Notes: generated from the sequence alone by a model not told the origin. A stretch of 32,216 nucleotides of DNA from Actinomycetota bacterium (GCA_019348335.1 JAHWJR010000006.1:1-32216), one strand, 5' to 3'. Shown: positions 15,276 through 32,216, counted from the first letter of the stretch. Numbers and translations: made by a program.

Positions 15276-15289
15276 GAGTGACCTCCTTC

Positions 15290-16321
15290 CTAGAAGAGAA
15301 CCTTGAACACGCCGGTGGCCAGGATGTTGACCAGGGCGAGGGGGATGAGGAACTTCCAGGCGAACGTCTGGAGCTGGTCCTCCCGCAGGCGAGGGTAGGT
15401 GAAGCGGATCCAGAAGATCAGGAAGGCGACGAGCATGGTCTTGACGAACAGCACCGCGGGCCCGACCAGGTTGGAGATCAGCCCGCCGTCGACGTCGAGG
15501 CCGGGGACGTACCAACCGCCCAGGAACATGGTGGCGGCCAGGGCCGAGAAGGCGAAGGCGGCCCCGAACTCGCCGAGGTAGAAGAACAGGAACTGGAGGC
15601 CGCTGTACTCGACCTGGTAACCGGCCACCAGCTCGGACTCGGCGATGGGCATGTCGAACGGCGGCTGGGTGAGCTCGGCCTGGGTCGCCACCAGGAACAG
15701 GGCGAAGCCGATGAACTGGGTGAAGATGAAGGGCTGGCCGATGAGGCCGACCCCGAAGATGGCGCCCTCGGCTTGGGCCCGCACGATGCCCTGCAGGCTC
15801 AGCTCGCCCGACTGGATGACCACGCCGACCACGGCGAGCACCAGGGGCAACTCGTAGGCGATGAGCTGGCCGGCCGCCCGCAGGCCGCCCATGAGGGCGT
15901 ACTTGTTGGCCGAGGCCCAACCCGCCATGAGGATGCCCAGCACCGAGATGGAGGACACGGCCAGAGCGAAGAAGATGCCGATGTCGAGGTCTTCGGCCAC
16001 CACGTTGGGCCCGGCGGGGATGACGACGAACAGCAGGAACGTCGACAACAGGACCACGACCGGCGCCAGGAAGAACACCCTGCGGTCGGCCCGCTCGGGC
16101 GCCAGGAGCTCCTTCTGCACGAACTTGGCCCCGTCGGCCAGCAGCTGGAGGGCGCCGTGGGGCCCAGCCTCCATGGGACCGAGCCGGCTCTGCATGTGGG
16201 CCATCATCTTGAACAGGAAGGTCTGCACGATGACGGCCGTGGCCGTGGGCACGATCACCATCACGGCCAGGACCTTGATGACCAGCAGCTGCCAGTACGC
16301 CAACTCGACCGCGAGGATCAC
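15290..16321 (-). CDS. nuoH: NADH-quinone oxidoreductase subunit H
   Basis: 343 aa, with [48 protein letters not shown] and [14 protein letters not shown]. It has a GTG start 28 nt after the nuoD stop. Confidence 0.95.
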
Positions 16322-16349
16322 CGGGGGGACCCCCGCTGCACGGGTGCTG

Positions 16350-17522
16350 TCATCGGTCGATGTCCCCGAGGATGAAGTAGAGGGAGGCGAGGATGGTGAT
16401 CACGTCGGGAACGTAGACGCCCTTCATGACCCAGGGCACGATGGAGATGTTGTTGAACGAGGGCGTGCGGATCTTGACCCGGAAGGGGCCGAGGTCGCCC
16501 TTGCTGACGACGTAGTAGCCCATCTCGCCCAGCGGGTTCTCGGTGGATACCCAGGCCTCGCCCGCCGGCACCTTGATGATGCGGGGCACCTTGGCCATGA
16601 TCGGGCCCGACGGGAGCCCGTCGAGCAGCTGGTCGACGATGTGCGCCGCCTCTCGCGTCTCCTGGAGACGCACCCAGTACCGGGCGAAGCTGTCGCCGTC
16701 GGGGTGGGTCCACACCTTCCAGTCCACCTCCGACCACGCCAGCGGGTTGGGGCTGTCGCGGCGAAGGTCCCAGTCGACCCCGGACGCCCGGAGGTTGGCT
16801 CCTGACAGCCCGTAGCTGAGCGCGATCTCGGGAGGGATGACCCCGATGCCCCTCGCCCTGGTCTCGAAGATCTCGTTGCCGAGGAGCAGCGTCTCCATCT
16901 CGTCGCAGAAGCGGCGCACCTTGTCCATGGCCGATTTGGTCTCGGCCACCCATCCCTTGGGCAGGTCCTCCTTCAGGCCGCCGATGCGGTCGTAGTTGGG
17001 ATGGAACCGGCCGCCCGTGGCCGCCTCGATCTGGTTGAGCACGTGCTCCCGGTCACGGAAGGCGTAGAAGACGGCGGTGATGGCCCCGAGCTGCACCCCC
17101 ATGTCGCCCAGGAAAAGGGTGATGTTGGCGATGCGCGACATCTCGAACAGCACGGTGCGGATCCACTGCGCCCGGGGTGGGGCCTCGATCTCCATGAGCT
17201 GCTCGGCGGCGAGGATGAAGGGCACCTCGTTGGCGAAGCTGCCGAGCCAGTCGATGCGGTTGATCAGCGTGGTGACCTGGGGGTAGGTGCGGACCTCGAC
17301 CAACTTCTCGTAACCACGGTGCATGTAGCCCATGACCGGCTCGGCGGAGATGACCTGCTCACCGTCGAGGCGGGTGATGATCCGTAGGGTGCCGTGGGTG
17401 GCCGGGTGCTGCGGCCCGATGTTCAGGGTCATCCCGTCGGTCTCCAGCTCGACGTTGACCCGGGCGTCGGCGGCCTGGCCGGTGACGTACGCCCGCTGCT
17501 GGTTCTGGGGGACGGCGCTCAT
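16350..17522 (-). CDS. nuoD: NADH-quinone oxidoreductase subunit D (49-kDa/NDUFS2 homolog)
   Basis: 390 aa, with LNIGPQHPATHGTLRI, GYMHRGYEKLVE, and a C-terminal ILASLYFILGDIDR. Confidence 0.95.
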   Translation of the reverse strand: MSAVPQNQQRAYVTGQAADARVNVELETDGMTLNIGPQHPATHGTLRIITRLDGEQVISAEPVMGYMHRGYEKLVEVRTYPQVTTLINRIDWLGSFANEVPFILAAEQLMEIEAPPRAQWIRTVLFEMSRIANITLFLGDMGVQLGAITAVFYAFRDREHVLNQIEAATGGRFHPNYDRIGGLKEDLPKGWVAETKSAMDKVRRFCDEMETLLLGNEIFETRARGIGVIPPEIALSYGLSGANLRASGVDWDLRRDSPNPLAWSEVDWKVWTHPDGDSFARYWVRLQETREAAHIVDQLLDGLPSGPIMAKVPRIIKVPAGEAWVSTENPLGEMGYYVVSKGDLGPFRVKIRTPSFNNISIVPWVMKGVYVPDVITILASLYFILGDIDR

Positions 17523-17536
17523 GCGGACATCGTCCT

Positions 17537-18685
17537 TCAGGACCCGTCACCTTCGCCGGGCATGGCCTCGACGTCGACCAACCCCGGCCAGGGCTTGACC
17601 TCCCGGGACAGCAGGGGGAAGTCCTTGCGCAGGGGGTTCCCCTCGAACGCGCCCGGCAGGTAGAGGTGGATGAGGTTGGGGTGGCCGTCGAAGGTGATGC
17701 CGTACATCTCCCACGCCTCGCGCTCGTGCCAGTCGGCCCCGGCGTACACCCCCACCAGCGACGGGGCCCGCAGGTCGTCGTCGGGCAGGTCGGCCTTGAG
17801 GATCAGGCCCACCGAGGTGACCGGCGCCATCAGCCGGGCGAACAGCTGGAAGCGGGTCTCGCCGCCGGCGTAGCCGTGCTCGATGGCAGCGGGTGACTCC
17901 TCATCACCACCCTGCTCGGCATCGTCGGCGTTCTCGTCACCGGCCGCCGGCTCCTCACTGCGACCGTAGGGCGACGGCATCCAGTCGATGGCGGAGAGGA
18001 AGCAGAAGTAGGTCAGGCCGAGCTCGTCTCGGCACACCTCGGCCGTTCGGCGCCACGCGTCGACGCTCACCCGGGCCCACAGCTCGCGCCCGTGGGCCAC
18101 GTGGGTCTGCTGCAGGTCGTCACCCAGCGCCGACCTCAGCGTGTCGAGCAGGCGGCCGGCGGCCTCGTCGACCTCGGGGGTCTCGGCGCTGTCCACCACC
18201 TCGGCCACCTCGTCGGCCCGAGCGGCCTTGTCGGCCCGGGACCGCTCCGCCGCCGCGCCCTCGCGCACGGCGGCGGTGGGCGTGGGCGGGGGTTGCTCGG
18301 GGACCACCGCGGAATCGGTGCCCGACGCCGGAGCACCTGCGGCCGGGGCCGTCGCCGCCGGCGCCGTGGTGTCGGGTGAGCCGGCGTCCCCGCCGGGGAC
18401 CTGGGCCACGTCGTCGGCTGCGGGGGAGGCCGAGCCGCCCCGCTCCTGGCCCTGGGAAGGGGTCTGGTCACTCGACAGCTCGCCCGGAGCACCCGGCGCC
18501 GGCACCGGCTCGTCGTCCGCCGCCGTGGTCCCCTCCCCCGGCGCCGCCGATGACCCCGTCGGCTGGTTCGAGTCGGCCGGGTTGGCGATCTCGCTCTGGA
18601 GCCCCGGGTCGTCGATGTCGTCGGCCGACGGGGCCTGTCCCTCGGCGTCCGGCTCCTCCCGACCGTCCGGATCAACCGACGACAA
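17537..18685 (-). CDS. nuoC: NADH-quinone oxidoreductase subunit C with a long disordered N-terminal extension
   Basis: The core is [12 protein letters not shown] ... [29 protein letters not shown] ... PLRKDFPL. The TTG start at 18685 overlaps the nuoB end by 14 nt. The first 170 or so residues are Asp/Pro/Ala-rich but keep high third-position GC. Internal GTG starts cannot be excluded. Confidence 0.8.
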
Positions 18686-19172
18686 TGGGCTCCCCTCTCC
18701 AGCGCTCGGACATGTCCTCGTTGCGGATGCGCTCCTGGAGCAGCACGATGCCCTCCAGCAACGCCTCCGGGCGAGGCGGGCAGCCGGGAACGTAGACGTC
18801 GACGGGCACGATCTGGTCGACCCCCTTGGTGACCGAGTAGGAGTCCCAATAGGGGCCGCCGCAGTTGGCGCAGCTGCCCATGGAGATCACGTACTTGGGT
18901 TCGGGCATCTGCTCGTAGAGCCGGCGGATGGCCGGGGCCATCTTGTCGGTCACCGTGCCCGAGATCACCACCAGGTCGGCTTGGCGGGGGCTGACGGGAA
19001 AGGGGATGACGCCCAGGCGCATGACGTCGTAGCGGGGGGAGCCGAACGTCGCGCCCATCTCGATGGCGCAGCAGGCGAGGCCCCACTGGTAGACCCACAG
19101 CGAGTAGCTGCGGCTGAGGTTGAGCAGATGGCTGAGAGGCTTGGGTATCTTCGCCCGTTCGACTAGACCCAC
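18672..19172 (-). CDS. nuoB: NADH-quinone oxidoreductase subunit B
   Basis: [25 protein letters not shown] and [11 protein letters not shown] (ligands of cluster N2). I chose the GTG at 19172 ([10 protein letters not shown]...), which overlaps the nuoA end by 10 nt and is in frame with track ORF 18672..19442. Confidence 0.9.
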
Positions 19173-19528
19173 CGCAGGACTCCCTTCCGCCAGGCGTACA
19201 CCAGACCGAGGGCGAGTATGACGATGAAGATGCCCATCTCCACCAAGCCGAACAGGCCGTAGCTCTCCAGCCGCAGGGCCCACGGGAAGATGAACACCGC
19301 CTCCACGTCGAACAGCACGAAGAGCAGGGCGAAGATGTAATAGCGAACCTGGCTCTGACCGAACCCGGGGCCCACGGGGTCGACGCCACTCTCGTAGGCG
19401 ATCGACTTCTGGGCGGTGGGACGGGAGGGCCGGATCAGCCACCCGGCGCCCAGCATGAGGGCGACCAGCAGGCCCGCAGCTCCGGCGAAGACGGCCACCG
19501 TGAGGTAGGCACGCAGGAACTCGGACAC
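19163..19528 (-). CDS. nuoA: NADH-quinone oxidoreductase subunit A
   Basis: 121 aa with three TM helices: YESGVDPVG...[23 protein letters not shown]. It has a GTG start and is the first gene of the operon. Confidence 0.9.
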
Positions 19529-19596: not shown

Positions 19597-20142
19597 GTGC
19601 CCCCGGCCGCACCCAACGCCACCGACCTGGGCGGCCTGGTGGTGCCCGACGCCCGGACCGGTGAGCCCGTCGACCTCGGCGCCACGCCCGCCTTCGGCGT
19701 GCTGACGATCATCCGCCACCGCTACTGACTGCCCTGCCAGCAGCACCTGGTCGAGGTGCGGAACCGCCGGGAAGCGCTCGAGGCACTCGGGGCCACGGCG
19801 GTGGCCGTGGGCTTCAGCCCGCCCGACGCCCTGGCCCACCTGGCCGACCACCTCGAGTGGCCCTGGCCCTTCCTGGCCGACACCGAGCGGACGGTCTACG
19901 CCCGGCTGGGACTGCCCCGCGCCTCGCTGCGGGACGTCTACTCCACCGGGACGATGCAGCGGTACCGGCAGGCCGCGGCCGCCGGCGAGCCCGTCCACGC
20001 CCCGGTCGAGGACGCTCGCCAGCTGGGGGGCGACGCCGTGGTGCGGGCCGGGCGGGTGGTGCGGCTGTTCCGGCCGGCAACCCCCGACGACCGCCCGCCG
20101 GTGGACGTCCTCGTCGGCGCCGTGGCCGAGGCCGCCCGGTAG
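19597..20142 (+). CDS. Thioredoxin-fold AhpC/TSA (PRXL2-like) redoxin with an in-frame TGA at the first Cys of CxxC: candidate selenoprotein, or a pseudogene
   Basis: Track ORF 19756..20142 continues in the same frame upstream through one TGA (19726-19728) to the GTG at 19597, the first start codon after the stop at 19501. Own translation: (M)PPAAPNATDLGGLVVPDARTGEPVDLGATPAFGVLTIIRHRY[TGA]LPCQQHLVEVRNRREALEALGATAVAVGFSPP...WPWPFLADTERTVYARLGL... The family motif is xRHxGCxxC, so the TGA falls on the first Cys. Confidence 0.5.
19743..19759 (+). promoter_or_regulatory. Short hairpin downstream of the in-frame TGA (possible bacterial SECIS apex)
   Basis: GCACC (19743-19747), loop UGGUCGA, then GGUGC (19755-19759). 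The loop starts about 20 nt after the UGA and contains GGU. The stem is only 5 bp plus one further C-G pair beyond a mismatch. Confidence 0.2.
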
Positions 20143-20153
20143 CCTCCCTGGCC

Positions 20154-21776
20154 ATGGCGCCGCCGCCCCCGTTCCCGGGCGAGCAGTCCGGCGCCGGCGT
20201 CCGGGCGCTGCTGGAGGAGCGGGCCCGGCGGCTCGGGCCCCACCGATTCCTGACCCTCCCGGGTGCATCGCTGACCTACGCCGAGACCGACGAGGTGGCC
20301 AACCGGGCGGCCAACGCGCTGGCCGCCCTCGGGTGCGGCGCCGGCGACGTGGTGATGGCCCGGTGCGGGAACGGGCTGCCGCTCGTGGCGACCTGGTTCG
20401 CCTGCATGAAGCTGGGCGCGGTGTTCATGCCGGTCAACCCCCTGCTGCGGGGTGAGCCCCTGCGCCGGGTGATGGCCCACGCCGGCGGGCAGGTGGTGGT
20501 GTGCGATGCCGGTCTCCACCCCGAGCTGGCGGTGGTGGCGCCGGGGCTTCCCGAGCTGCGGCACACGCTGGTCGCCGGCGGGCCGGCGCCGGCCGGCACC
20601 TCCTCGTGGGAGGCGGTGGTCGGCGCCGCCCCGTCCACTGCACCCCCTCCTCCACCGGACGACCCGGCGGCGCCGACCAAGCTCATGTACACCTCGGGCA
20701 CGACCGGGGTGCCCAAGGGCGTGGTCTGGAGCCGGGCGTGCGAGGCGACCTGGGCCCGGTGCTACGGCGACGAGCTCATTCCCCTCGCCGAGGGGGAGAC
20801 CGTCTACTCGTGCCTGCCGCTGTCCCACGTGACCTGCCAGGGCACCACCCTCGCCGCCCTGTGGAACGGCGCCTCCGCCAGCATCGACGCCTCGTTCGAC
20901 CCCTACGGCTTCTGGCGCCGGGTACGGGCGGCGGAGGCGGTGGCCTTCAGCTTCGTGGGCACGATCCTGTCGGTGCTGGGCCGGCGCCCGCCCCAGCCCG
21001 ACGACGGCGACAACCCCGTGCGCCGGGCCCTCGGCGCCGGCGCGCCGGCGTCGGGCTGGCGGACCTTCGAGCGCCGTTTCGGCCTCACCATCGTCGACGT
21101 GTGGGGCCAGACCGAGACGGCGTCGTGCTGGACGATGCCCGAACGCCTGCCCCAGCGCCCGGGAACGGTGGGCCGGCCGGCGCCTCGCTTCGCCGCCCGC
21201 CTGGTCGCCGACACGGGTGCCGAGGCGGCGGGAGGCGAGGTCGGCGAGCTGTGGATCCGGCCCCACCGGGCACTGGCCATGTTCAGCGGCTACCTGGGCG
21301 AGGACGGACGGCTGCTCCCGCCCGGGGACGGCGAGGGGTGGTACCACACCGGTGACCTGATGCGCCGCCACGACGACGGTGAGCTGTCCTTCCTCGGGCG
21401 CCGGCGCGACGCCATCCGCCGGCGGGGGGAGATGATCGCCGCCGACGACGTCGAGGCCGGGGCCCTCGCCCATCCCGGTGTGCTGGAGGCGGCCGCCGTA
21501 GGGGTCCCCGCCGAGGACGAGGCCGACGAGGACGTCAAGCTCTCCGTGGTGCCGCGGCCCGGCGCCGTTCTCGACCCGGTCGAGCTCCACGGGTTCCTGC
21601 GAGCGCAGCTTCCCCGCTTCATGGTGCCCCGGTTCCTCGACGTGCGGGCCGAGCTGCCCAAGACCCCCACGACCCGGGTCCAGAAGTACCGGCTCCAGGA
21701 AGAGGGCACCGCCGGCTGCTGGGACGCCCGGCCGGCGCTCAGGAGGCGAGGACCCGCTCGAGCACCTGGACCTTGA
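20154..21776 (+). CDS. AMP-dependent acyl-CoA synthetase/ligase (class I adenylate-forming enzyme)
   Basis: MAPPPPFPGEQ..., LMYTSGTTGVPKGVVWS (AMP-binding motif), GQTETAS, YHTGDL and PKTPTTRVQKYRL. The ATG at 20154 is in frame with track ORF 19857..21776 and lies 11 nt after the redoxin stop. Confidence 0.85.
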   Translation: MAPPPPFPGEQSGAGVRALLEERARRLGPHRFLTLPGASLTYAETDEVANRAANALAALGCGAGDVVMARCGNGLPLVATWFACMKLGAVFMPVNPLLRGEPLRRVMAHAGGQVVVCDAGLHPELAVVAPGLPELRHTLVAGGPAPAGTSSWEAVVGAAPSTAPPPPPDDPAAPTKLMYTSGTTGVPKGVVWSRACEATWARCYGDELIPLAEGETVYSCLPLSHVTCQGTTLAALWNGASASIDASFDPYGFWRRVRAAEAVAFSFVGTILSVLGRRPPQPDDGDNPVRRALGAGAPASGWRTFERRFGLTIVDVWGQTETASCWTMPERLPQRPGTVGRPAPRFAARLVADTGAEAAGGEVGELWIRPHRALAMFSGYLGEDGRLLPPGDGEGWYHTGDLMRRHDDGELSFLGRRRDAIRRRGEMIAADDVEAGALAHPGVLEAAAVGVPAEDEADEDVKLSVVPRPGAVLDPVELHGFLRAQLPRFMVPRFLDVRAELPKTPTTRVQKYRLQEEGTAGCWDARPALRRRGPARAPGP

Positions 21777-22521
21777 GCTCGACGAAGCGGGGATCACGCA
21801 GCGTGGCCCGGCCCCGCTCCGCACCGAAGGAGATGCGGCTGGACTCGATCACCCGGCTGGGCCGCCGGCCGAGCAGTGCCAACCGGTCGCCCAACAGGAG
21901 GGCCTCCTCGACGTCGTGGGTCACCAGCACCACGGTCGTGGGTCGCTCGGCCAGCAGGCCTCGCAGCCACTCGTGCATGCGCAGACGGGTCTGGGCGTCG
22001 AGGGCCCCGAAGGGCTCGTCGAGCAACAGCACCGGTGGCCGGTTGGCCAGGACCTGGGCGATGGCGGCGCGCTGGCGCATGCCGCCGGACAGCTGGCGGG
22101 GCAGGGCGTCGGCGAAGCCGGTCAGCCCGGTGGCCACCAGCAGCTCGTCGGCCACGGCATCGGCGTCGGATCGGCGGGCAGCCGATGGTCCCCACGCCAG
22201 GTTGTCCCGCAGCGACAGCCAGGGGAACAGCGTCGCACCCTGGGCGACCATGGGGTGCGTGGGCGAGGGGCCACGCAGTGGCTCGCCTCCCAGGGTGATG
22301 GTGCCGTCGTCGGGCTCCTCCAGGCCGGCCAGCAGCCGGAGCAACGTCGACTTGCCGCAGCCGCTGGGCCCCAGCACGGCGGCCACCTCCCCGGCGGCCA
22401 CGCTCAGGTCGACACCGTCGAGCACCTGCACGGCGCCGTAGGACTTGCGCAGCCCCCGCACCTCCAGGTCGGTGGCGACGGCCGTCAGCCCCCCGGCGGA
22501 GCGGACCGGCGAGGGGCTCAC
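21739..22521 (-). CDS. ABC transporter ATP-binding protein (NitT/TauT family: nitrate/sulfonate/bicarbonate-type)
   Basis: Walker A GPSGCGKST, signature LSGGMRQR, Walker B LLLDEPF. The GTG at 22521 overlaps the permease stop (GTGA) and is in frame with track ORF 21739..23673. Confidence 0.9.
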   Translation of the reverse strand: MSPSPVRSAGGLTAVATDLEVRGLRKSYGAVQVLDGVDLSVAAGEVAAVLGPSGCGKSTLLRLLAGLEEPDDGTITLGGEPLRGPSPTHPMVAQGATLFPWLSLRDNLAWGPSAARRSDADAVADELLVATGLTGFADALPRQLSGGMRQRAAIAQVLANRPPVLLLDEPFGALDAQTRLRMHEWLRGLLAERPTTVVLVTHDVEEALLLGDRLALLGRRPSRVIESSRISFGAERGRATLRDPRFVELKVQVLERVLAS

Positions 22522-23420
22522 CGGTCGCTCCACGCCACGAAGGGGCGGGCGGCGGCACGCAGGATCAGGTCGCCGGTCAGGCCCACGAGGGCGAAGGTGG
22601 CCATGCCCACGATGATGTGGTCGAGCCGGCCCACCTCCCGGGCGGCCCACATCATGGCCCCCACCCCCGACGTGGTGCCGGTGAGCTCGCCCACGATCAC
22701 GCTCATCCACCCGAGGGTCAGCCCCAGGCGCAGGCCGGTGACGATGGCCGGCAGCGCCGCGGGAAGGTAGACCTTGCGGCCCAGGTCCCGCCTGCGGGTG
22801 CCCAGCATGACGGCGCCGTCGACCAACGCCCGTGGCACCCGCGAGGCGCCGTCGGCGGTGGCGATCACGATGGGGAACAGCGCGCCCACGAACACCAGGT
22901 AGCGGGCGGCGCCCTCGCCCAGCCCGAACCACACCAGGGCGATGGGCAGCCAGGCGGTGATGGGGATCGACCGGAGGGCCTGCACCAGCGGGTCGAGCAG
23001 CTCGGCGGTGCGCCGGGACAGCCCGATCGCCGCCCCCAGGGGCACGCCCACGGCCACCGCCAGGGCGAAGGCCACCAGCCACCGGCCCACGCTGGCGCCG
23101 ACGTGGCGGCCAGCGGCGCCGTCGAAGGGCGTCACGCCCGGCAGCGTGGCGCCCCCACCACCGGCCACGAACGCCCACCCGGCCTCCACGACCCTGCCCG
23201 GCGACGGCAAAAGGCGGGGCGACACCCAGCCGGCGGCGCTGGCCAGCGCCCAGACCGTCACCAACAACGCCGGCACCACCAGGCCGAGCAGGCGGCGCCG
23301 GCGGCGCCGGGGACGACCGCTCGGGGTGATGACCGGTTCGCGCTCGTCGAGACCGCCGGGATCGTCCGGGCCCGGGGCGGTGTGCTCGGCCACGGCGGCC
23401 GTCCCGGATGTGGTGCTCAC
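22518..23420 (-). CDS. ABC transporter permease (NitT/TauT family)
   Basis: Has about six TM helices and an EAA-like loop (ADGASRVPRALVDGAVMLGTRRRDLGRKVYLPAALP). The GTG at 23420 overlaps the binding-protein stop (GTGA) and is in frame with track ORF 22518..23624. Confidence 0.85.
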   Translation of the reverse strand: MSTTSGTAAVAEHTAPGPDDPGGLDEREPVITPSGRPRRRRRRLLGLVVPALLVTVWALASAAGWVSPRLLPSPGRVVEAGWAFVAGGGGATLPGVTPFDGAAGRHVGASVGRWLVAFALAVAVGVPLGAAIGLSRRTAELLDPLVQALRSIPITAWLPIALVWFGLGEGAARYLVFVGALFPIVIATADGASRVPRALVDGAVMLGTRRRDLGRKVYLPAALPAIVTGLRLGLTLGWMSVIVGELTGTTSGVGAMMWAAREVGRLDHIIVGMATFALVGLTGDLILRAAARPFVAWSDR

Positions 23421-24481
23421 CGGTCGGGGAGGTGGTCGAGCAGGTAGAGGGACTCGTAGTCGGGCTCGCGGCTGAGCACCCCGGTGGAGAGCATGATCTC
23501 GCCGGCGCCCTCGACCTGGGACCGCCGGCGGTCGTCGAAGTCCCACTCGGCGCCGATGTTGGACAGCACCTCGCCGGCCACGTCCTCGGCGTAGCCGAAC
23601 TGGCCCACCAGCAGGTCGTGCCACACCTCCTCGTCGTTGTCACCGCCCGGGGTGAGGTGCTCGGCGGCGTCACGTTGCATCCGCACCACCGCGGCGAGCA
23701 GATCGTCGTCGTCCTGCACGTGGGGCGCGGCCCACATGGCGGTGTTGAAGTCGCCCACCGGCGTGGTGTACACGTCGAGGCGCCGCGCCACCCCGTCGAC
23801 CACGCTCTGGGTCACAGGCGGCTCAGTGCCCATGTAGGCGTCGACGTCGCCCCGCTCCAGGGCAGCGGCGTGGTCGGCGTACCCGAGAGGGATGGCGGTG
23901 ACGTCACGGTCGAGCTCGAGGCCGGCCTGGGCCAGCAGGGTGGTGAGCACAAGGACCTGCACGCCGGGCGGCGGCACCGCCACCCGCTTGCCGGCCAGGT
24001 CCTCGACGCTCTCGATGCCCCGGTCGGTCCGGGCGGCCAGGCCGATCCCCTGGCGCGAGCACATGCAGATGATCTTGGAGCGGAAGCCCTGCTCCGCCTC
24101 GATGAGGGTGTTGTAGGGGCCCATGAGCCCGAAGTCGAGGTCGCCGGCGTCCATGGCCCGGTTGATGTCGCTGGCGCTGGTGAAGATCTGCGGCTCGACG
24201 GTGAGGCCCTCGGGGGCGAACTGCTGCCAGAACAGCGGTGACGAGGCGTGGTTCTTGGCGTAGAGGGCCACGCTGATGGTGCGGCCGGCGAACGACGTGC
24301 CCCGGTCGTCGGTGGGGCCGGGGGCCGGCGCCCCACTCGAGGCGTCGCCGCCGTCTCCGCACCCGGCCAGGGCCAAGCCGGCGACACCGGCGCCCGCCCA
24401 GCCGAGGAGGCGACGCCGGGACACGCGAAGAGCGAGGTCGGGCGGGGGGCCTTCCGTCGACGCCGGCGGGCGATGGTCCAT
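23417..24481 (-). CDS. ABC transporter substrate-binding lipoprotein (NMT1/SsuA-like) with a Tat-type signal
   Basis: Twin-arginine motif SRRRLLGWAG followed by the lipobox LAGC. The mature domain resembles sulfonate/nitrate-type binding proteins. A strong SD, GGGAGGAA, precedes the ATG at 24481. Confidence 0.85.
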   Translation of the reverse strand: MDHRPPASTEGPPPDLALRVSRRRLLGWAGAGVAGLALAGCGDGGDASSGAPAPGPTDDRGTSFAGRTISVALYAKNHASSPLFWQQFAPEGLTVEPQIFTSASDINRAMDAGDLDFGLMGPYNTLIEAEQGFRSKIICMCSRQGIGLAARTDRGIESVEDLAGKRVAVPPPGVQVLVLTTLLAQAGLELDRDVTAIPLGYADHAAALERGDVDAYMGTEPPVTQSVVDGVARRLDVYTTPVGDFNTAMWAAPHVQDDDDLLAAVVRMQRDAAEHLTPGGDNDEEVWHDLLVGQFGYAEDVAGEVLSNIGAEWDFDDRRRSQVEGAGEIMLSTGVLSREPDYESLYLLDHLPDR

Positions 24482-24584
24482 GGTTCCTCCCGAGTGCCGT
24501 GGTCCCGCGCTGACGGGATCACTTCAACCTCTGTTTGAACCTAGCGGCCCCGCTTCCGCCGGGCACCAGCGCCGCGCGAAGGCC

Positions 24585-26114
24585 TTAGGGGGCGCTCAAC
24601 AGGACGGGAACGGCGTCGCGGGCGAAGTCGACGACGGGTGACGGGAGTATCCCCACGACGATGGTGAAGGCCACGGCCACGCCCAGGGCCAGAGCGGCGC
24701 CGGGCGGCACTCGCACGGCCGGTCTGGTGACGGCTTCGGCTCCCTCGGTCTCGTCGCCCATGTACATGGCGACGGTGATGCGCAGGTAGACGAAGGCGGC
24801 GACCACGGCCGACAGCATGGCGATCAGGGCCAAGGCGTAGCTGTCGGCCTCCACGGCGGCGCCGATCACGTAGAACTTGGCCAGGAACCCGGAGGTCAGC
24901 GGCACCCCGGCCTGGGCCAGCAGCAGCACGGTGAAGGCCAGCGCCAGGAGCGGTCGCCGGCGCGACAGGCCCCGGTAGGCGGACAGGCCGTGATCGGCGT
25001 CACCCCGGCCCCCGACCAGGGTGGCCACCCCGAAGCTGCCCACCACCATGAACGTGTAGGCCAACAGGTAGAACAGGGCGCCGGCGATGCCTCGGTCGCT
25101 GGCCGCCTCGGCGCCCACGAGGATGAAGCCGGCGTGGCTGATGGAGCTGTAGGCCAGCATCCGCTTCACGTCGCTCTGGACGACGGCCAGGAACGAGCCC
25201 ACGAGCAGGCTGAGCACGGCCAGCCCCCACATGAGGGGCCGCCAGTCGAGGCGGTAGACGTCGAAGGTCGACACGAACACCCGCAGCAGGGCGGCGAAGC
25301 CGGCCGCCTTGGAGGCTGACGCCATGAAGGCGGTGACCGGGGTGGGCGCTCCCTGGTAGACGTCGGGCGTCCAGACGTGGAAGGGCACGGCGGCCACCTT
25401 GAAGCCCAGCCCCACCAGCAGCAGGGCGAACCCGGCCAGCAGCAGGCCGTTGGAGGCCAGCACGTTGCCGCTCAGGAAGCCGGCGATGGCCCCGAAGTTG
25501 GTGGACCCGGTGGCGCCGTACACCAGGGCGATGCCGTAGAGCAGGAAGGCCGACGAGAACGAGCCCAGCACGAAGTACTTGATGGCCGACTCCTGCGACT
25601 CGAGGCGTCGCAGGTGGAGCCCGGCCATGACGTAGAGGGCGATGGAGAGCGTCTCGAGACCGAGGAAGACCACGATCAGGTCGTTGGCCATGGCCATCAC
25701 CACGCCGCCGGTGCCCGACAGCAGCATGAGCACGTAGAGCTCGGGACCGTCGAGGCCCTCCCGGCGCAGGTAGTCGTCGGCCAGGAGTGCGCCGAGGGCG
25801 ATGGCGGCGGTGATGGTCACGGCGAAGAAGACGCTGAAGCCGTCGATGGTGATGGCGCCGCCGATGGCGGTGAACGGGCCTCGGCCAGGGTCGGTCACCC
25901 GCTGCCAGAGCAACGCCGAGCACGCCACCGCCAGCGCCGCGGTCACCACGGTGAACAGGGCGTAGAAGCCCCGCGGGGGCCGGCTGCGGGCCAGGGCGGC
26001 GGCGGTGAGCAACACGAGGGCTCCGCCCACCAGCACCAGCAGGGGGGAGACGGCGAACCACTCGATCTCGGGGGTGGCGATGGGCTCGATCTGGGCGATG
26101 ACCGCCGGCGTCAT
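24585..26114 (-). CDS. nuoN: Second NuoN-like antiporter subunit (orphan nuoLMN set)
   Basis: 509 aa, with FKVAAVPFHVWTPDVYQGAPTPVTAFMASASKAAGF. Its ATG overlaps the preceding gene's stop (ATGA at 26111-26114). Confidence 0.9.
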   Translation of the reverse strand: MTPAVIAQIEPIATPEIEWFAVSPLLVLVGGALVLLTAAALARSRPPRGFYALFTVVTAALAVACSALLWQRVTDPGRGPFTAIGGAITIDGFSVFFAVTITAAIALGALLADDYLRREGLDGPELYVLMLLSGTGGVVMAMANDLIVVFLGLETLSIALYVMAGLHLRRLESQESAIKYFVLGSFSSAFLLYGIALVYGATGSTNFGAIAGFLSGNVLASNGLLLAGFALLLVGLGFKVAAVPFHVWTPDVYQGAPTPVTAFMASASKAAGFAALLRVFVSTFDVYRLDWRPLMWGLAVLSLLVGSFLAVVQSDVKRMLAYSSISHAGFILVGAEAASDRGIAGALFYLLAYTFMVVGSFGVATLVGGRGDADHGLSAYRGLSRRRPLLALAFTVLLLAQAGVPLTSGFLAKFYVIGAAVEADSYALALIAMLSAVVAAFVYLRITVAMYMGDETEGAEAVTRPAVRVPPGAALALGVAVAFTIVVGILPSPVVDFARDAVPVLLSAP

Positions 26115-27646
26115 CGTTCGCCCTCCGTCGCCGCCACCTCGGGCTGGCTGAAGTCGGAGCTGGCCTCGACGTGGGCGATCAGGCGGTCGACGGCGGGCTC
26201 GATGCGCTCGAGCACCGGCTTGGGGTACACGCCCAGGAACACGATGGCCGCCAGCAACGGCGCCATGATCAGGCGCTCACGCCGGTCCATGTCCGGGGTC
26301 CCGGCGTTGGCCTCGTCGGGAGCGCCGTGGAACACCCGCTGGTAGGCCCACAGCAGGTACACCGCGGCGAGGATGACGCCCACCGTGGCCACCACCGCCC
26401 ACCACCGTCGGGTGGGGAAGCTGCCGAGGAGGATGAGGAACTCACCCACGAAGCCGTTGAGCCCGGGCAGGCCGATGGAGCTCAGCATCACCACGGTGAA
26501 CACCCCGGCCAGCACCGGCGCTGCCTTCTGCAGCCCCTTCAGCTCGGCGATCTCCCGCGTGTGGCGGCGCTCGTAGATCATGCCCACCAGGAGGAAGAGG
26601 GCACCGGTGGAGATGCCGTGGTTGACCATCTGGATCACCCCGCCCTGGAGCCCCTGGGTGGTGAAGGCGAAGGTGCCGAGCACGATGAAGCCGAGGTGGG
26701 CCACCGACGAGTAGGCCACCAGGCGCTTGAGGTCGCGCTGCATGGCCGCCACCACGGCGCCGTAGATGATGCCGATCACTCCGAGCGTGACGAGGAAGGG
26801 GGCGAAGTACGCCGCCGCCTCGGGGAACAGGTAGAGCCCGAAGCGGAGGAACCCGTAGGTGCCCAGCTTCAACATGACACCGGCCAGGATCACCGAGCCG
26901 GCGGTGGGGGCCTGGGTGTGGGCGTCCGGCAGCCAGGTGTGGAGCGGGAACAGCGGCACCTTCACGGCGAAGGCCACGGCGAAGCCGAGGAACAGCCACC
27001 GGGCGGTGGTCTGGGCGATGCTGCCCTGGGCCTCGGCGATGGTGACCAGGTCGAAGGTCAGCTCCCCGGTGGCCTGCTGGTGCAGGAACGCCAGCGCCAC
27101 GATCCCCACCAGCATGAAGGCCGAGCCGGCCATGGTGAACAGGAAGAACTTGAGGGCGGCGTAGACGCGGTCGCCGTAGCCCCAGCCGCCGATCAGGAAG
27201 TACATCGGCACCAGCACGATCTCGAACATCACGAAGAACAAGAAGAGGTCGAGCGAGAGGAAGACCCCGATGCACCCCGCCTCCAGCAGCAGGAGCCAGG
27301 CCAGGTAGGGCTTGGGATCGTGGTGGGGCCGGACCCCGATCACGGCGATGGGGTACAGCAGCCCGGTGAGCACCACCAGGAACAAGGAGATGCCGTCGAC
27401 GCCCAGGTTCCAGGCGATGCCGAAGTCGGCGATCCAGGTGTACTTCTCACCCAGCTGGAACCCGGCGTCGTTCCCGTCGAAGACCACGAGCAGCCACACG
27501 CTCAGCGCGGCCACCACCAGCGTGGTGGCGACGCCCACGCCCCGCACGAGTGCAGCGTTGCTCCGGGGCACCAGGGCCACGGCCAGCGCACCCAGCACCG
27601 GCACGACGATCAGGGCGGTGAGCAGGGGAAAGCCGAGGTCGTTCAC
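26111..27646 (-). CDS. nuoM: Second NuoM-like antiporter subunit (orphan nuoLMN set)
   Basis: FFVMFEIVLVPMYFLIGGWGYG, KVPLFPLHTWLPDAHTQAPTAGSVILAGVMLKLGTYGF and VAHLGFIVLG. The GTG at 27646 overlaps the nuoL-like stop (GTGA) and is in frame with track ORF 26111..29143. Confidence 0.9.
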   Translation of the reverse strand: MNDLGFPLLTALIVVPVLGALAVALVPRSNAALVRGVGVATTLVVAALSVWLLVVFDGNDAGFQLGEKYTWIADFGIAWNLGVDGISLFLVVLTGLLYPIAVIGVRPHHDPKPYLAWLLLLEAGCIGVFLSLDLFLFFVMFEIVLVPMYFLIGGWGYGDRVYAALKFFLFTMAGSAFMLVGIVALAFLHQQATGELTFDLVTIAEAQGSIAQTTARWLFLGFAVAFAVKVPLFPLHTWLPDAHTQAPTAGSVILAGVMLKLGTYGFLRFGLYLFPEAAAYFAPFLVTLGVIGIIYGAVVAAMQRDLKRLVAYSSVAHLGFIVLGTFAFTTQGLQGGVIQMVNHGISTGALFLLVGMIYERRHTREIAELKGLQKAAPVLAGVFTVVMLSSIGLPGLNGFVGEFLILLGSFPTRRWWAVVATVGVILAAVYLLWAYQRVFHGAPDEANAGTPDMDRRERLIMAPLLAAIVFLGVYPKPVLERIEPAVDRLIAHVEASSDFSQPEVAATEGER

Positions 27647-29595
27647 GCCACCCCGGTCCGGAGGAGGAAGAAGGCCAGCAGCAGCACGGCGCCACCGCCC
27701 ATGAACAAGGCGTAGTTGCGCACGTAGCCGGTCTGGGTGAGGCGCAACCGGGACCCGCCCCCGCGGACCAGGGTGGCGATGCCGTTGACGGCGCCGTCGA
27801 TCCCCCGCCCGTCGAGGACCCGCGAGGTGAAGTTGGCGAAGGCCCGCCCGGGACCCCCGAAGAACCCGGCCAGGGCCTGGTCGAACCCCCACGCCCGGCG
27901 CAGCAGCTCCGGCTCGAAGCGGTCGGCGGGTTGCGTGCTGCGCAGGTAGATGGCCCGGGCGGCGAGGATCCCGATCACCACACCGACGCCGGTCACGGCG
28001 GCGAGGCTGAGCAGGATGCCGGCGGGGATGTCGAGCTCGTGCAGGCGGTCCTCGAACACCGGCTCGAGGAAGTGCTCGAGGGTCAGCACCCCGGGCAGGT
28101 TGAGCAGGCCCCCGCCGGCGGCCAGCACGGCCAGCACCACCAGGGGCACGGTCATGGTGGGCGGCGACTCGTGGGGCGTGGCCGGAGCGGCCTGGGCGGC
28201 GGCGGGCTCGTGCTCGGGCTCGGCCAGGGCCTCCTCCGAGGTTGCGCCGGCGTGCGCCTCCTGCCAGCGGGGCGGGCCGAAGAAGACCAGGAAGACCTGG
28301 CGGCTCATGTAGTAGGCGGTGAGCAGGGCGGTGATGACGCCCACCAACCACAGGAGCCGGTTGGAGTCCCAGGCGGCGGCGAGGATCTCGTCTTTGGACC
28401 AGAAGCCGCTGAACGGCGGAATGCCGGCGATGGCCAGCCAGCCGACGATGAACGTACCGGCGGTGATGGGCATGAGCTTGCGCAGGCCGCCCATGCGGCG
28501 CATGTCCTGCTCGTCGTGGAGGCCGTGGATGACCGAGCCGGCTCCGAGGAACAGCAGGGCCTTGAAGAAGGCGTGGGTGATCATGTGGAAGATGGCGGCC
28601 ACGTAGGCGCCCACCCCGATGGCCAGGAACATGTAGCCGAGCTGCGACACCGTCGAGTAGGCCAGCACCTTCTTGATGTCGCGCTGGGCCACCGCGCAGG
28701 TGGCGGCGAACAGGGCGGTGGCGGCGCCCATCACCGAGATGACGGTCAGGGCGGCGGGGGCGGCGTCGAGCAGGGGGTTCACCCTGGCCATCAGGTACAC
28801 GCCGGCGGTCACCATGGTGGCGGCGTGGATGAGCGCCGAGACCGGCGTCGGGCCCTCCATGGCGTCGGGTAGCCACACGTACAGCGGGAGCTGGGCCGAC
28901 TTGCCGGCCGCCCCCACGAACAGCAGCAGGGCGATGCCGAGGGCAGTGGCCTCGGGCAGGGCGCCGGCGTTCTCCAGGAAGCCCTCCTCGCCGGCGTAGG
29001 TGAGCGTTCCCAGCGAGGCGAAGGTCAGGAAGATGGCGACCATGAAGCCCCAGTCGCCCACCCGGTTGGTGACGAAGGCCTTCTTGCCGGCCACCGCCGC
29101 CGAGTTCCGCTCGAACCAGAACGACACCAGAAGGTAGGAGCACGCCCCCACGCCCTCCCAGCCGAGGAAGGTGATGAGCAGGTTGTCACCCAGCACCAGC
29201 ATGAGCATGGAGAAGGCGAACAGGTTGAGGTACAGGAAGAAGGTGTGGAAGCGGGGGTCGCCGTGCATGTAGCCGATGGAGTAGAGGTGGATCAGCGCCC
29301 CCACCCCGGTGACGAACAGCACCATGGCCATCGACAGCGGGTCGACCAGGAAGCCCACGTCGACCGAGAAGCTCCCCGACGGCAGCCACTCGAAGACGGT
29401 GAACACGAACTGGCGGTGGTGCTCGTCCTCGCCCAGAAGCCCGGCGAAGGTCACCAGCCCGGCCACGAACGACCCGGTCACCATGGCGGTGGCCAGCCAT
29501 CCCGCCGCCGGCTCGCCCAGCTTTCGCCCCGCCGCCAGGAGGATGAGGAACCCGGCCAGGGGCAGGGCGGGAATCAACCAGACGGCGCTCAGCAT
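27643..29595 (-). CDS. nuoL: Second NuoL-like antiporter subunit (orphan nuoLMN set)
   Basis: 650 aa, with GWEGVGACSYLLVSFWF and KSAQLPLYVWLPDAMEGPTPVSALIHAATMVTAGVYL. The C-terminal lateral-helix-like segment plus a final TM helix is retained (...IDGAVNGIATLVRGGGSRLRLTQTGYVRNYALFMGGGAVLLLAFF). Confidence 0.9.
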   Translation of the reverse strand: MLSAVWLIPALPLAGFLILLAAGRKLGEPAAGWLATAMVTGSFVAGLVTFAGLLGEDEHHRQFVFTVFEWLPSGSFSVDVGFLVDPLSMAMVLFVTGVGALIHLYSIGYMHGDPRFHTFFLYLNLFAFSMLMLVLGDNLLITFLGWEGVGACSYLLVSFWFERNSAAVAGKKAFVTNRVGDWGFMVAIFLTFASLGTLTYAGEEGFLENAGALPEATALGIALLLFVGAAGKSAQLPLYVWLPDAMEGPTPVSALIHAATMVTAGVYLMARVNPLLDAAPAALTVISVMGAATALFAATCAVAQRDIKKVLAYSTVSQLGYMFLAIGVGAYVAAIFHMITHAFFKALLFLGAGSVIHGLHDEQDMRRMGGLRKLMPITAGTFIVGWLAIAGIPPFSGFWSKDEILAAAWDSNRLLWLVGVITALLTAYYMSRQVFLVFFGPPRWQEAHAGATSEEALAEPEHEPAAAQAAPATPHESPPTMTVPLVVLAVLAAGGGLLNLPGVLTLEHFLEPVFEDRLHELDIPAGILLSLAAVTGVGVVIGILAARAIYLRSTQPADRFEPELLRRAWGFDQALAGFFGGPGRAFANFTSRVLDGRGIDGAVNGIATLVRGGGSRLRLTQTGYVRNYALFMGGGAVLLLAFFLLRTGVA

Positions 29596-29926
29596 GGCGG
29601 GCTGGACCCTACCGCAGCCCGCTTCGCGCAGGGAGCTTGCAAATGACCAGGCGGCCGGGCAGCGCTACACCGGAACAGCCGGCGGTTGGTTCGACGACCG
29701 GGCCAGTGCGACGTGCACAGTGGCCAGGGGCGCTTGGGGACCGGCCCTGGGTGATCGCTACGTCAGCGTGAAGGTGCGGGGACGGCCCGGCTACGCCGCC
29801 GTGCCCACCGCCGAACCCACACGCCTGGCCCGGCTGCTGGCCGACCCCGTGAACGGAGCCGACGACGCCCGACGAGAATGAACCCAAGTGCGGGCGAAGC
29901 CGCCCATGGTGGCGGTCAGCCTCGAG

Positions 29927-30395
29927 CGCCGCAGGTCCCACACCGGCTTCACCGGCGTCTCCTCCTTCTGCTCGGCGTCGTCGAAGGTGATCGTGCACGC
30001 TCCCAGCAGCGCTGCTCAGCAGGGCGGCCCCGACGTGCCGCCTCATCGGCCCGGCTCCGGAGCCCACCAACCTGACCCAGGCCGGGTACATGTCGTCTCG
30101 GATCCACTTCCAGCGCTTCTCGAAGATCGACACGTTGTCGAGAGGCAGGCCGACGCCGATGTGGTCCGGGGTGCCCACATGGACGCCCTCGCTGCCGGGG
30201 ATGCGCACGTCGGTGAAGGGGAGCCGGTCGGGGACGAGCCAGCCGGGCACGACCGGGATGCGATCGGGGGCTCAGGGTCTACAGCCAGGAGTCCTCGCTG
30301 TGGTGGCGGATGGCGTCGTCGTCGGCGACGGGGCTCTGCCGCTGTTCGTAGCGCTGCAGGTTCGAGGTTGCCCCGCTCGGCCGGGCACGGGTCAT
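29927..30395 (-). pseudogene. Decayed tandem copy of the junction between the unknown gene (3' part) and the lipoprotein gene (5' part)
   Basis: By eye, 29927-30395 aligns with 30935-31590 at roughly four-fifths identity. Examples: PGWLVPDRLPFTDVRIPGSEGVHVGTPDHIGVGLPLDNVSIFEKRWKWIRDDMYPAWVRLVGSGA versus PGWLVPDRVPYTDVRIPGGEGVHVDTPDQIRVGLPINNVSVFEKRWQWIRDDMYPAWVRLVGSGA, and CTITFDDAEQKEETPVKPVWDLR versus CTISFEEGEQTDQRKEVPVKPVWDLR. The copy has two deletions of about 85-90 nt, a 1-nt insertion, an in-frame TAG (HSEDSWL*) and a frameshift between the signal peptide and the lipobox Cys. Confidence 0.6.
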
Positions 30396-30454
30396 GCGAC
30401 GGCGCTGACCCCCGCGGACTTGGCGGCGTCAACCCTCAGCTCGGCCGGGCATCC

Positions 30455-31063
30455 TCAGGTCTCTTGGCTCTCGTCGTACCAGGAGACGGTGACGCTCAGG
30501 TAGGACTCGCCGGTGCTCAGGGCCCGGGCGTCGATGCTGAGCGAGGGCCCATCCTCGGTCGGCCGCTGCGAACCGGTGGTCGCCATGGAGCCCCCCGGAC
30601 TGTTGTCTCTGCCGTCGGCGTTGCGGGCAGCCCACTCGGCAAGACGCGAGGCGTCGAGGCCCCACTGGCGGGCCAGCTCGGCAGCCCGCCGGGCGGCGTC
30701 ACGCACCGGCTCCCGCGGGTAGTTGACAACGATGTAGTCCAACTGCCCATGGTCGGCGCTGGTGTCGAAGTCGAACGGCCGGCTGGGTATGGCGGTGATG
30801 GGGCCCTCCGGGGGCGGCTCGATGACCACCCCGGCAGGGAGCAGGATCTTCAGCTCGCCCGGCTCGGCCTCGACGTGGTACAGGTCGAGGTCGTTGTCCT
30901 CGGGCCAGCCCACGTCCTCGATGCGATGGCTGTTGCGCAGGTCCCACACCGGCTTCACCGGCACCTCCTTCCTCTGGTCGGTCTGTTCGCCCTCCTCGAA
31001 GGAGATCGTGCACCCGGCCACCAGCGCGGCCAGTAGCAGGGCCACGACCAGGAGCCGCTTCAT
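30455..31063 (-). CDS. Lipoprotein of unknown function
   Basis: MKRLLVVALLLAALVAGCTISFEEGEQ... is a signal peptide plus lipobox (LVAGC). Length is 202 aa. The ATG at 31063 overlaps the upstream gene's stop (ATGA) and is in frame with track ORF 30455..32188, whose upstream part is junk. Confidence 0.7.
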   Translation of the reverse strand: MKRLLVVALLLAALVAGCTISFEEGEQTDQRKEVPVKPVWDLRNSHRIEDVGWPEDNDLDLYHVEAEPGELKILLPAGVVIEPPPEGPITAIPSRPFDFDTSADHGQLDYIVVNYPREPVRDAARRAAELARQWGLDASRLAEWAARNADGRDNSPGGSMATTGSQRPTEDGPSLSIDARALSTGESYLSVTVSWYDESQET

Positions 31064-32216
31064 CGGCCGGGCTCGTAGCGCAACCACGAGTCGGGGATGG
31101 TACGGCGCTCGGCGGCCAGGTCCCCGAGCGGGGTGGCCACCAGGTCGCCGGCGGCGCCGGAGCCCACCAACCTGACCCAGGCCGGGTACATGTCGTCCCG
31201 AATCCACTGCCAGCGCTTCTCGAAGACCGACACGTTGTTGATGGGTAGGCCGACCCGGATCTGGTCGGGGGTGTCGACATGGACGCCCTCGCCGCCGGGG
31301 ATGCGCACGTCGGTGTAGGGCACCCGGTCGGGGACGAGCCAGCCGGGCACGACCGGGATGCGATCGGGGGTGTTCAGCCCCACCTCGTAAGGCACCACCT
31401 CCCGGAACGGGCGACCGCCGGGGATGGGGCTCTCGGCGACCACCGACATGCCGAGGGTCAACAGCCAGGTGACCTCGCTGTGGTTGCGGATGGCGTCGTA
31501 GTCGTCGCCGATGATCTGCTTCTGCTCGTAGCGCAGCAGCTCCAGGTTGCCCTGCTGCACCCGAGCGGGGTCGCCCGAGTCGATGTGGCGCCAGGCTCGG
31601 ATGTGCTCGTCCTTGATGGCTCTGCTCGCGTGCAGGGCTGACAGCGCCTCCATCCCCCCTTCCTGGTAGGCCAGATGCTGCCAGGCCAGATCGTCGAAGA
31701 TGTTCTGCTGCATGTCGAGGAACGTGGTCTCGACGAAGCGCAGCTCGCCGGCCAGGCCGGCGAGGTCGTCGGCGCCGAGGTCGACCAACCGGCGCACGAC
31801 CGGGTCGGGCAGCCCCGGGTACAGCTTCTCCAGGGCCTCCTCGACCTGGTCGGCGGTCATGGCCCCGTCCTCGATGGCCCGGCGCAGCACGTGGACGTCC
31901 TGGAACCCGGCGTAGAAGGTGGCACCGGCCAGCTTGGCCATGCCGGCCCACAGGAACTGGTCGGGGTGGTCGGCGTAGAGCCGAGCGTAGAGCTCCCAGG
32001 CGGCCTGCACCGGGGCGTCGTCGCTGACCGCGGTGGTGGCCGCCCGGTCGCGGATCTCGAGCGCCTCGTCCAACAGCCGCCGGGCGGCTTCGAGGTCGGC
32101 CTCGGCGCCGGCCAGCAGCGCCGGCCAGTCGGGCCCGCTCCACGGGTCGGGCGGGTGGGGTGGGGCATCGGGCCGGGCGGCGTTCCACTCCTCGGCGTGG
32201 CGGCGGGTGGCGGTGT
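31060..32216 (-). CDS. Conserved-looking protein of unknown function (possibly partial, frame open to the right edge)
   Basis: Track ORF 31060..32073 starts at a TTG, but the frame has no stop up to the window edge (...EWNAARPDAPPHPPDPWSGPDWPALLAGAEADLEAARRLLDEALEIRD...). Distinctive segments include DHPDQFLWAGMAKLAGATFYAGFQD, IFDDLAWQHLAYQEGG and NLELLRYEQKQIIGDDYDAIRNH. I cannot assign a family with confidence. Confidence 0.6.
   Translation of the reverse strand, partial: TATRRHAEEWNAARPDAPPHPPDPWSGPDWPALLAGAEADLEAARRLLDEALEIRDRAATTAVSDDAPVQAAWELYARLYADHPDQFLWAGMAKLAGATFYAGFQDVHVLRRAIEDGAMTADQVEEALEKLYPGLPDPVVRRLVDLGADDLAGLAGELRFVETTFLDMQQNIFDDLAWQHLAYQEGGMEALSALHASRAIKDEHIRAWRHIDSGDPARVQQGNLELLRYEQKQIIGDDYDAIRNHSEVTWLLTLGMSVVAESPIPGGRPFREVVPYEVGLNTPDRIPVVPGWLVPDRVPYTDVRIPGGEGVHVDTPDQIRVGLPINNVSVFEKRWQWIRDDMYPAWVRLVGSGAAGDLVATPLGDLAAERRTIPDSWLRYEPGR

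Follow-up and report, generated by a model that had tools for sequence, protein, structure and literature searches.

The ndh genes of cyanobacteria are scattered, and these organisms, in which NdhD and NdhF paralogues are swapped (NDH-1L / NDH-1MS), have multiple antiporter-like paralogues per genome. In the canonical operon of the bacterial 14-subunit complex I (NUO14), the genes for the antiporter-like subunits NuoL, NuoM and NuoN, for which solved structures are available from M. smegmatis (8e9g) and Paracoccus denitrificans (8qby), stand contiguously after nuoA-K in the order L-M-N and are translationally coupled. The "split" nuo operons defined by Degli Esposti (2015), for example in Bdellovibrio (PMC4758237), have the complex I gene set divided into sub-clusters at different loci, and 11-subunit complex I-like enzymes without NuoEFG (NUO11) are well known, for example from Desulfitobacterium (PMC11238625; on their evolution, PMC3144371). 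Here we analyse a stretch of 32,216 nucleotides (nt) from an Actinomycetota bacterium (GCA_019348335.1, JAHWJR010000006.1:1-32216; in the following "the window", by which the whole stretch is meant), whose nearest relatives are Acidimicrobiales and in which a nuoL-nuoM-nuoN triplet (L2, M2 and N2) lies upstream of an 11-subunit nuo operon with its own copies of the same subunits (L1, M1 and N1). In our judgement the triplet is very probably one part of a split canonical operon, namely the detached nuoL-nuoM-nuoN of the organism's NADH-oxidising 14-subunit complex I (NDH-1).

Compared with the solved 14-subunit enzymes, L2, M2 and N2 have the same domains, channel residues and C-terminal extension of L, as well as the same gene order with translational coupling, whereas 40-60% of the residues differ and the triplet is physically apart from nuoA-K. 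The division of the gene set, as proposed here, is likewise that of the split operons, of which the Bdellovibrio-type loci L059 and L060 in our comparison set hold a membrane-arm sub-cluster A-H-J-K-L-M-N; the break in the window, in contrast to the catalogued cases, falls between K and L, detaches the distal antiporter-like module only and is lineage-specific within Acidimicrobiales, 78 of 80 relatives being unsplit at K-L. What is new is this instance of a K/L break in a soil Acidimicrobiales lineage, split nuo gene sets being an already recognised category. The neighbouring operon is of the NUO11 type and already followed the triplet in the ancestral arrangement; the triplet is not part of it and belongs to the NUO14 lineage. 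Of a swapping as in NdhD/NdhF there is no sign here: each of the two cores has its cognate L, M and N by orthology, and the NdhF3 cut-off is not reached.

Genes were called in this DNA of 70% guanine plus cytosine (GC) from codon-position GC and a listing of open reading frames (ORFs), domains being taken from Pfam and families from NCBIfam cut-offs. A first-pass annotation, made from the sequence alone, had described three genes with stop/start overlaps, and these are indeed present, at the positions given there and on the minus strand, as follows (lengths in amino acids, aa; TM, transmembrane helix).

27643-29595, minus strand: nuoL (L2) of a canonical 14-subunit-type complex I; 650 aa; Pfam Proton_antipo_N and Proton_antipo_M; C-terminal lateral-helix/TM16 region.
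26111-27646, minus strand: nuoM (M2); 511 aa; Proton_antipo_M; GTG start overlapping the L2 stop.
24585-26114, minus strand: nuoN (N2); 509 aa; Proton_antipo_M; ATG start overlapping the M2 stop.

The overlaps, of 4 nt each, read GTGA (L2/M2, 27646-27643) and ATGA (M2/N2, 26114-26111). L2 exceeds the cut-offs of the NuoL equivalog NF005141 (729.4 bits against 556) and of TIGR01974 (711 against 407.5), M2 those of the NuoM equivalog NF004500 (581.4 against 550) and of TIGR01972 (608 against 264), and N2 that of the NuoN subfamily TIGR01770 (417.9 against 332.6), its best equivalog, NF004441, being missed by 4 bits (472.8 against 477). The top PDB matches are M. smegmatis NuoL 8e9g for L2 (E 2e-149), NuoM of Paracoccus and M. 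smegmatis for M2 (~1e-116) and M. smegmatis NuoN for N2 (3e-95); an exact-protein look-up found no protein on record identical to L2. Judged by sequence, L2, M2 and N2 are the NuoL, NuoM and NuoN of a canonical 14-subunit complex I.

The catalytic signatures to which attention had been drawn earlier are intact. In L2, aligned to 8e9g_L and 6hum_F, the TM5 Glu lies in GWEGVG and the TM7 Lys in GKSAQ, followed by the TM8 His, the TM11 Lys and the TM12 Lys-Asp; WLPDAM and WLPDAH motifs occur in the triplet proteins; and the alignments place the TM5 Glu, TM7 Lys, TM8 Lys and TM12 Glu of M2 in FEIVL, FAVKVP, MLKLG and GFVGEF, and the TM5 Glu, TM7 Lys, TM8 Lys and TM12 Lys of N2 in GLETLS, GFKVAA, SASKAAG and FLAKF. 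The C-terminal lateral-helix segment attributed to L2 was also recovered, residues 470-644 aligning in sequence to residues 451-624 of M. smegmatis NuoL (the lateral-helix/anchor segment) and, more generally, to the lateral-helix/TM16 part of the solved NuoL and NdhF chains. At columns invariant in canonical orthologues, scored by leave-one-out conservation in alignments with about 20 of these (21 for L), the deviations are 0/140 for L2, 0/107 for M2 and 0/64 for N2, a score that equals or beats that of every relative. No inactivating substitution is found at the conserved positions, and decay or relaxed selection in the triplet is ruled out by this test.

The decisive context comes from synteny. 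The comparison set consists of 80 fetched loci encoding relatives of L2, on which all window proteins were mapped by tblastn. In 78 of the 80, the best matches of L2-M2-N2 are the final three genes of an array A-B-C-D-[about 4.7 kb]-H-I-J-K-L-M-N with nuoK directly upstream of nuoL, the other two having no upstream sequence. Since the 4.7-kb gap codes for NuoE (2Fe-2S thioredoxin-like), NuoF (51K FMN) and NuoG, the relatives' operon is the canonical 14-subunit nuoA-N. L2 is 53-76% identical to the canonical NuoL of Acidimicrobiia. Moreover, in L002, L004, L007, L009, L011, L017 and others only 150-350 nt separate the canonical nuoN from an operon orthologous to the 11-subunit operon of the window (A1 66-90% and D1 73-83% identical), so that the window's order, with L-M-N ahead of the 11-subunit operon, represents the ancestral neighbourhood. 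From these relatives the window differs by the absence of nuoA-K upstream and by a 5-kb insert ahead of the second nuoA; contiguity of L-M-N with a preceding nuoA-K, the feature of the canonical operon, is thus absent in the window and present in 78/80 relatives. The earlier observation that the triplet has no adjoining partners therefore holds as far as the window ORFs go, none of which is an adjoining nuoA, H, J, K, B, C, D or I, whereas the epithet "orphan" does not, the orthologues of relatives ending a nuoA-N operon. The first-pass annotation had itself allowed that the triplet might turn out to belong to a larger split operon, and had proposed looking for the triplet in related genomes; in every relative with sufficient upstream sequence it is the tail of nuoA-N.

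The neighbouring operon, which the same annotation had called the main one, reads as follows.

8732-19528, minus strand: 11-subunit nuo operon, A, B, C, D, H, I, J, K, L, M, N (Pfam), paralogous to the canonical operon.

Nothing lies between its nuoD and nuoH, and since nuoE, nuoF and nuoG are lacking it is a secondary paralogue and not the canonical enzyme. The distance from the N2 stop (24585) to its nuoA start (19528) is about 5.06 kb, in agreement with the 5 kb first given. Identity is 41% between L2 and L1, 44% between M2 and M1 and 37% between N2 and N1, so that "about half", as estimated by eye, was too high, while the two deductions drawn from it, an ancient divergence and the absence of a recent duplication, stand.

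The position of the break can be read from the homology to the closest relative, L001, a contig with the canonical operon; this homology extends (blastn, 82% over 5.1 kb) from the N2 stop to window position 29617, 22 nt before the L2 ATG. Upstream of L2 the window contains the following.

29596-29620, minus strand: remnant of the ancestral nuoK-nuoL spacer (..GCTGCGGTAGGGTCCAGCCCGCC-ATG), with the breakpoint at its upstream edge.
29621-30454, minus strand: non-coding/pseudogenic debris in place of nuoA-K, with a weak codon-position GC signal.
30455-31063, minus strand: up1, a lipoprotein, unrelated to nuo.
31060 to beyond the window end (32216), minus strand: up2, a weak DUF2515 match, with an ATGA overlap with up1.

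The kept motif GCGGTAGGGTC..CCCGCC-ATG is that of the K-L spacer of L001 and of low-depth canonical K-to-L unitigs, which stem from a relative of low abundance in the metagenomes. A tblastx comparison with the upstream 10 kb of 15 relatives revealed no nuoK or nuoJ remnants upstream of L2, the matches being at the noise level of high-GC DNA.

Where, then, are nuoA-K? Public soil metagenome runs from five studies contain the window; of these, X1, X2 and X7 belong to study P1, X1, X2, X3 and X5 span two studies, and X9, X10 and X14 come from three further ones. These runs were compared with the canonical operon of L001 at an identity of at least 80%. Unitigs 84-89% identical to nuoC/D, nuoG, nuoH and nuoK of L001 were found, whose depth follows that of the window organism run by run. 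In seven runs the nuoD-like unitigs (about 85-89% identical to L001) track the L2 start over depths from 30 to 1372, about 40-fold.

X1: nuoD-like depth 342; L2-start depth 254.
X2: nuoD-like depth 470; L2-start depth 476.
X3: nuoD-like depth 1372; L2-start depth 1129.
X7: nuoD-like depth 746 / 784; L2-start depth 757.
X10: nuoD-like depth 757; L2-start depth 688-805.
X14: nuoD-like depth 56 / 30; L2-start depth 44 / 34.
X9: nuoD-like depth 60; L2-start depth 79-108.

Unitigs resembling nuoG, nuoH and nuoK have a similar depth in the four runs checked for them; a nuoG-like unitig has a depth of 283 in X1, and a nuoH-like unitig one of 1522 in X3. That the nuoC/D/G/H/K-like unitigs are the window's own 11-subunit paralogues was considered and rejected, the paralogues matching the canonical genes of L001 only at 72-75% over about 100-200 nt. 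In X1, X2, X3 and X5 the high-depth 3' end of nuoK reads TAG followed by CGAGGTCGGGCCGCCCCAGGCGGTCG and not by L, with depths of 113, 274, 660 and 71 in X1, X2, X3 and X5, respectively, split over two haplotypes; K-to-L unitigs reach depths of 2-31 only, and the sole high-depth L start in these four runs is that of the window. This evidence, strong but indirect, points to a single genome in which nuoA-K lie elsewhere and L-M-N in the window. The suggestion, made at the outset, of a partnership with an unlinked redox module would on this reading be essentially right. Genes for nuoA-K and EFG occur at matching depth in the runs that contain the window. A 9-mer, GGCGGTCGG, which follows nuoK and in X7 recurs upstream of L, was considered as a hint of an inversion and dismissed as a chance match, since the flanks diverge at once.

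Several observations weigh against a split operon with both parts in one genome. Unitigs with the nuoK end reach only about half of the L2 depth, which the presence of two haplotypes would account for. The 30-mer following nuoK gave no match in exact searches of metagenome_contigs and genome_contigs (0 in each) and is also not in the window or in loci L081-L083. The linkage of nuoA-K to this genome rests on the covariance of unitig depth in metagenomes, and the genes might in principle belong to a co-abundant close relative. A consensus scan of 24300-31200 found no promoter or terminator for the triplet, such a scan being uninformative at 70% GC, and the RNA runs examined, all of them tiny, contain none of its sequence. 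Finally, in the metagenome-assembled genome (MAG) YX2bin15 the canonical K-L-M-N contig L001 is found together with L082, whose end is a junction of the window type, so that either the bin is contaminated or the genome has two copies of L. L082, which ends 32 nt into nuoL, is a mosaic with respect to the window, its positions 6176-7925 being 89.7% identical over up2/up1 and its final 485 nt (8004-8488) 99-100% identical; a join of chimeric origin, recent recombination or contamination of the bin by another strain would explain this, and for YX2bin15 we regard bin contamination or a chimeric join as more likely than two L copies.

Two alternatives seem to us improbable, and about equally so. 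The triplet could be a true orphan or remnant, nuoA-K having been deleted and L-M-N now serving as an alternative or exchangeable distal arm for the 11-subunit core, much as the first-pass annotation had proposed. Its genes are intact, it shares a strand with the 11-subunit operon at a distance of 5 kb, and the 2.6 kb upstream of it in the window, like the roughly 8 kb in the arrangement of the L082 type, are free of nuoA-K. Yet canonical nuoC/D, G, H and K occur at matching depth in the checked runs from five studies, so that a cognate core would be present, and the 11-subunit operon comes with a full L, M and N of its own, with which the triplet shares so little (37-44% identity) that the compatibility of interfaces is doubtful. 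The proximity of the two is moreover no evidence of a new partnership, relatives showing by their tandem arrangement that it is ancestral. Alternatively, a complete canonical nuoA-N could exist elsewhere in the genome, making the triplet a third set, that is, an extra displaced copy of L-M-N. This draws its support only from YX2bin15, where L001 is accompanied by L082 with its nearly identical up1'-L junction, although the mosaic nature of L082 suggests a chimeric or contaminated bin. It is also countered by the single high-depth L-start unitig in X1, X2, X3 and X5, which is the window's, and by the high-depth nuoK end running into non-L sequence, canonical K-to-L unitigs being at 10-100 times lower depth; and the window's L-M-N is 82% identical in nucleotides to that of L001, like other shared genes (78-90%), as fits orthology.

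A further possibility is that the join of the cassette region to nuoL is a chimeric assembly, which we hold to be very improbable. The unitig graph does branch around 29588-29641, and there are several alternative upstream sequences. The junction unitigs (29263-29613 and 29588-29959), however, occur in X1, X2, X3 and X5, and in X7, X9, X10 and X14 the L2 start again reaches high depth, preceded there by variant sequences, these being an L082-like form without 29662-29892 (in X7), a locally diverged form, and an up1-like gene whose product ends in "..GVEQGET*" about 45 nt before L2; among the upstream variants of comparable depth in these four runs none is nuoK. An independent MAG contig, L082, carries the junction as well. 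Because the junction, or a non-nuoK upstream sequence, recurs across runs, the split is no isolated error of assembly; it characterises the population of a whole lineage. Least of all do we credit a stand-alone Mrp-like cation/proton antiporter, or a CO2-hydration partner (DabB- or NdhF3/D3-like), formed by L-M-N alone: the antiporter-like fold, which L-M-N share with MrpA and MrpD, and the NitT/TauT-family transporter directly downstream would be in its favour, whereas the proteins meet Nuo equivalog or subfamily cut-offs, all three score far below the NCBIfam cut-offs for MrpA, MrpD, NdhF3, FpoL and Hyf (best MrpA model 297 against 937, best MrpD model 204 against 542, NdhF3-family TIGR01960 274.7 against 588.7), the scanned window ORFs contain no mrpB/C/E/F/G, DabA or Cup gene by Pfam, and the orthologues always lie within nuoA-N, so that the stand-alone antiporter, one of the suggestions of the first-pass annotation, and a CO2-uptake role are both excluded by family scores and gene context.

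Returning to the split canonical operon, the course of events may be pictured as follows. The ancestor of the Acidimicrobiales would have had nuoABCDEFGHIJKLMN followed head-to-tail by the second, 11-subunit nuo operon, as the synteny of relatives suggests; in the lineage of the window a rearrangement would then have cut the first operon within the short nuoK-nuoL spacer, leaving L-M-N beside the 11-subunit operon and behind what is now a hypervariable cassette region, while nuoA-K presumably moved to, or stayed at, another place in the same genome. L2, M2 and N2 would continue to form the distal proton-pumping arm on NuoA, H, J and K, with the lateral helix of L2 clamping M2 and N2. The triplet would be transcribed separately from nuoA-K from a putative promoter of its own, the kept 22-nt spacer would provide for translation initiation of L2, and M2 and N2 would remain translationally coupled.

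Without the synteny the triplet resembles an exotic orphan pump module; with it, it is the detached tail of a housekeeping complex I. The break sits exactly where the proximal membrane core (A, H, J, K) meets the distal module of antiporter-like subunits (L, M, N), a position that fits the modular origin of complex I, and the enzyme appears to tolerate an unlinked expression of the L-M-N module, such expression being presumed here. The main value of the case lies in a corrected annotation and in an example of a module boundary tolerated as a genomic break. It is a long shot that the K/L break has become fixed across a widespread lineage of soil Acidimicrobiales and could allow an independent regulation of pump stoichiometry or a sharing of L-M-N by the NADH-dependent NUO14 and the EFG-less NUO11 cores; if this were true, a distal pump module would stand under its own promoter directly behind a hypervariable, type VII-linked cassette array, 5 kb upstream of the 11-subunit operon. 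The tandem of NUO14 and NUO11, together with the cassette region at the breakpoint, may be of interest for actinobacterial respiration and for type VII-associated polymorphic loci.

The region upstream of L2 is hypervariable, since the runs carry several variant upstream sequences; the cassette sequences there differ among strains, and the debris carries 1-nt indels that differ between strains as well. Within the debris lies a truncated extra up2/up1 unit, 30050-30386 matching up2 residues 217-355 at 91% nucleotide identity and 29902-30015 matching, with a frameshift, up1 residues 7-47 (tblastn), such that the upstream region contains direct repeats, 91% identical, at a spacing of 1100 nt. The 285-nt stretch 29618-29900 has no homologue in any fetched locus or in the rest of the window (blastn, tblastx). 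The up2/up1 genes form tandem repeat units, of which L081 has three copies (1-3877) and the window the truncated extra one (29902-32216). In L082 (137-8488) they follow an ATPase of 1453 aa with FHA and FtsK/SpoIIIE domains (EssC/EccC-like) and two small ORFs, and these, without any nuo gene, are all that the 5.7 kb upstream of up2 in L082 contains. From its sequence the array looks like polymorphic toxin/immunity-type cassettes that are associated with type VII secretion and include an orphan module.

On the other side of the triplet, the lineage-specific insert between nuoN and the 11-subunit operon contains the following.

19756-24481, both strands: the insert as a whole; relatives mostly have only 150-350 nt there.
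21739-24481, minus strand: ATP-binding cassette (ABC) transporter of the NitT/TauT type, with the substrate-binding protein at 23417-24481, the permease at about 22518-23450 and the ATPase from 21739 to about 22560 (Pfam).
About 20200-21776, plus strand: AMP-binding enzyme.
19756-20142, plus strand: AhpC/TSA_2 gene.

The components of the transporter are an NMT1/THI5-like binding protein, a BPD_transp_1 permease and an ABC ATPase, and it lies on the strand of nuoN, beginning 103 nt past the nuoN stop (24585). The interval separating N2 from the transporter yielded no terminator, for which reason read-through from nuoLMN into it is possible.

The head-to-tail tandem NUO14-NUO11 supercluster is conserved in many MAGs of Acidimicrobiia/Actinomycetota (L002, L004, L007, L009, L011, L015, L017, L037 and L045; about 1-22000), and its nuoN-nuoA2 gap, usually of 150-350 nt, forms an insertion hotspot, with 1.4-5.4 kb of added DNA in L003, L005, L008, L010, L015, L022 and the window. 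In the Acidimicrobiales loci L017, L018, L021, L025 and L026 (about 10001-12400) NuoL is about 780-807 aa long, with ~1 kb extra after about residue 450, an insertion that separates the antiporter core from the C-terminal helices. Several 1-2-nt indels, relative to the intact genes of the window, in nuoM and nuoN of L001 (12573-14684) break the frames in tblastn and are probably assembly errors of this hybrid (OPERA) MAG. Elsewhere in the window, a Methyltransf_28 gene (NDUFAF7-like family; 7605-8700, minus strand) lies directly downstream of the nuoN of the 11-subunit operon, a membrane H+-pyrophosphatase is encoded at 1494-3965 (plus strand) and an M48 peptidase at 442-1416 (minus strand).

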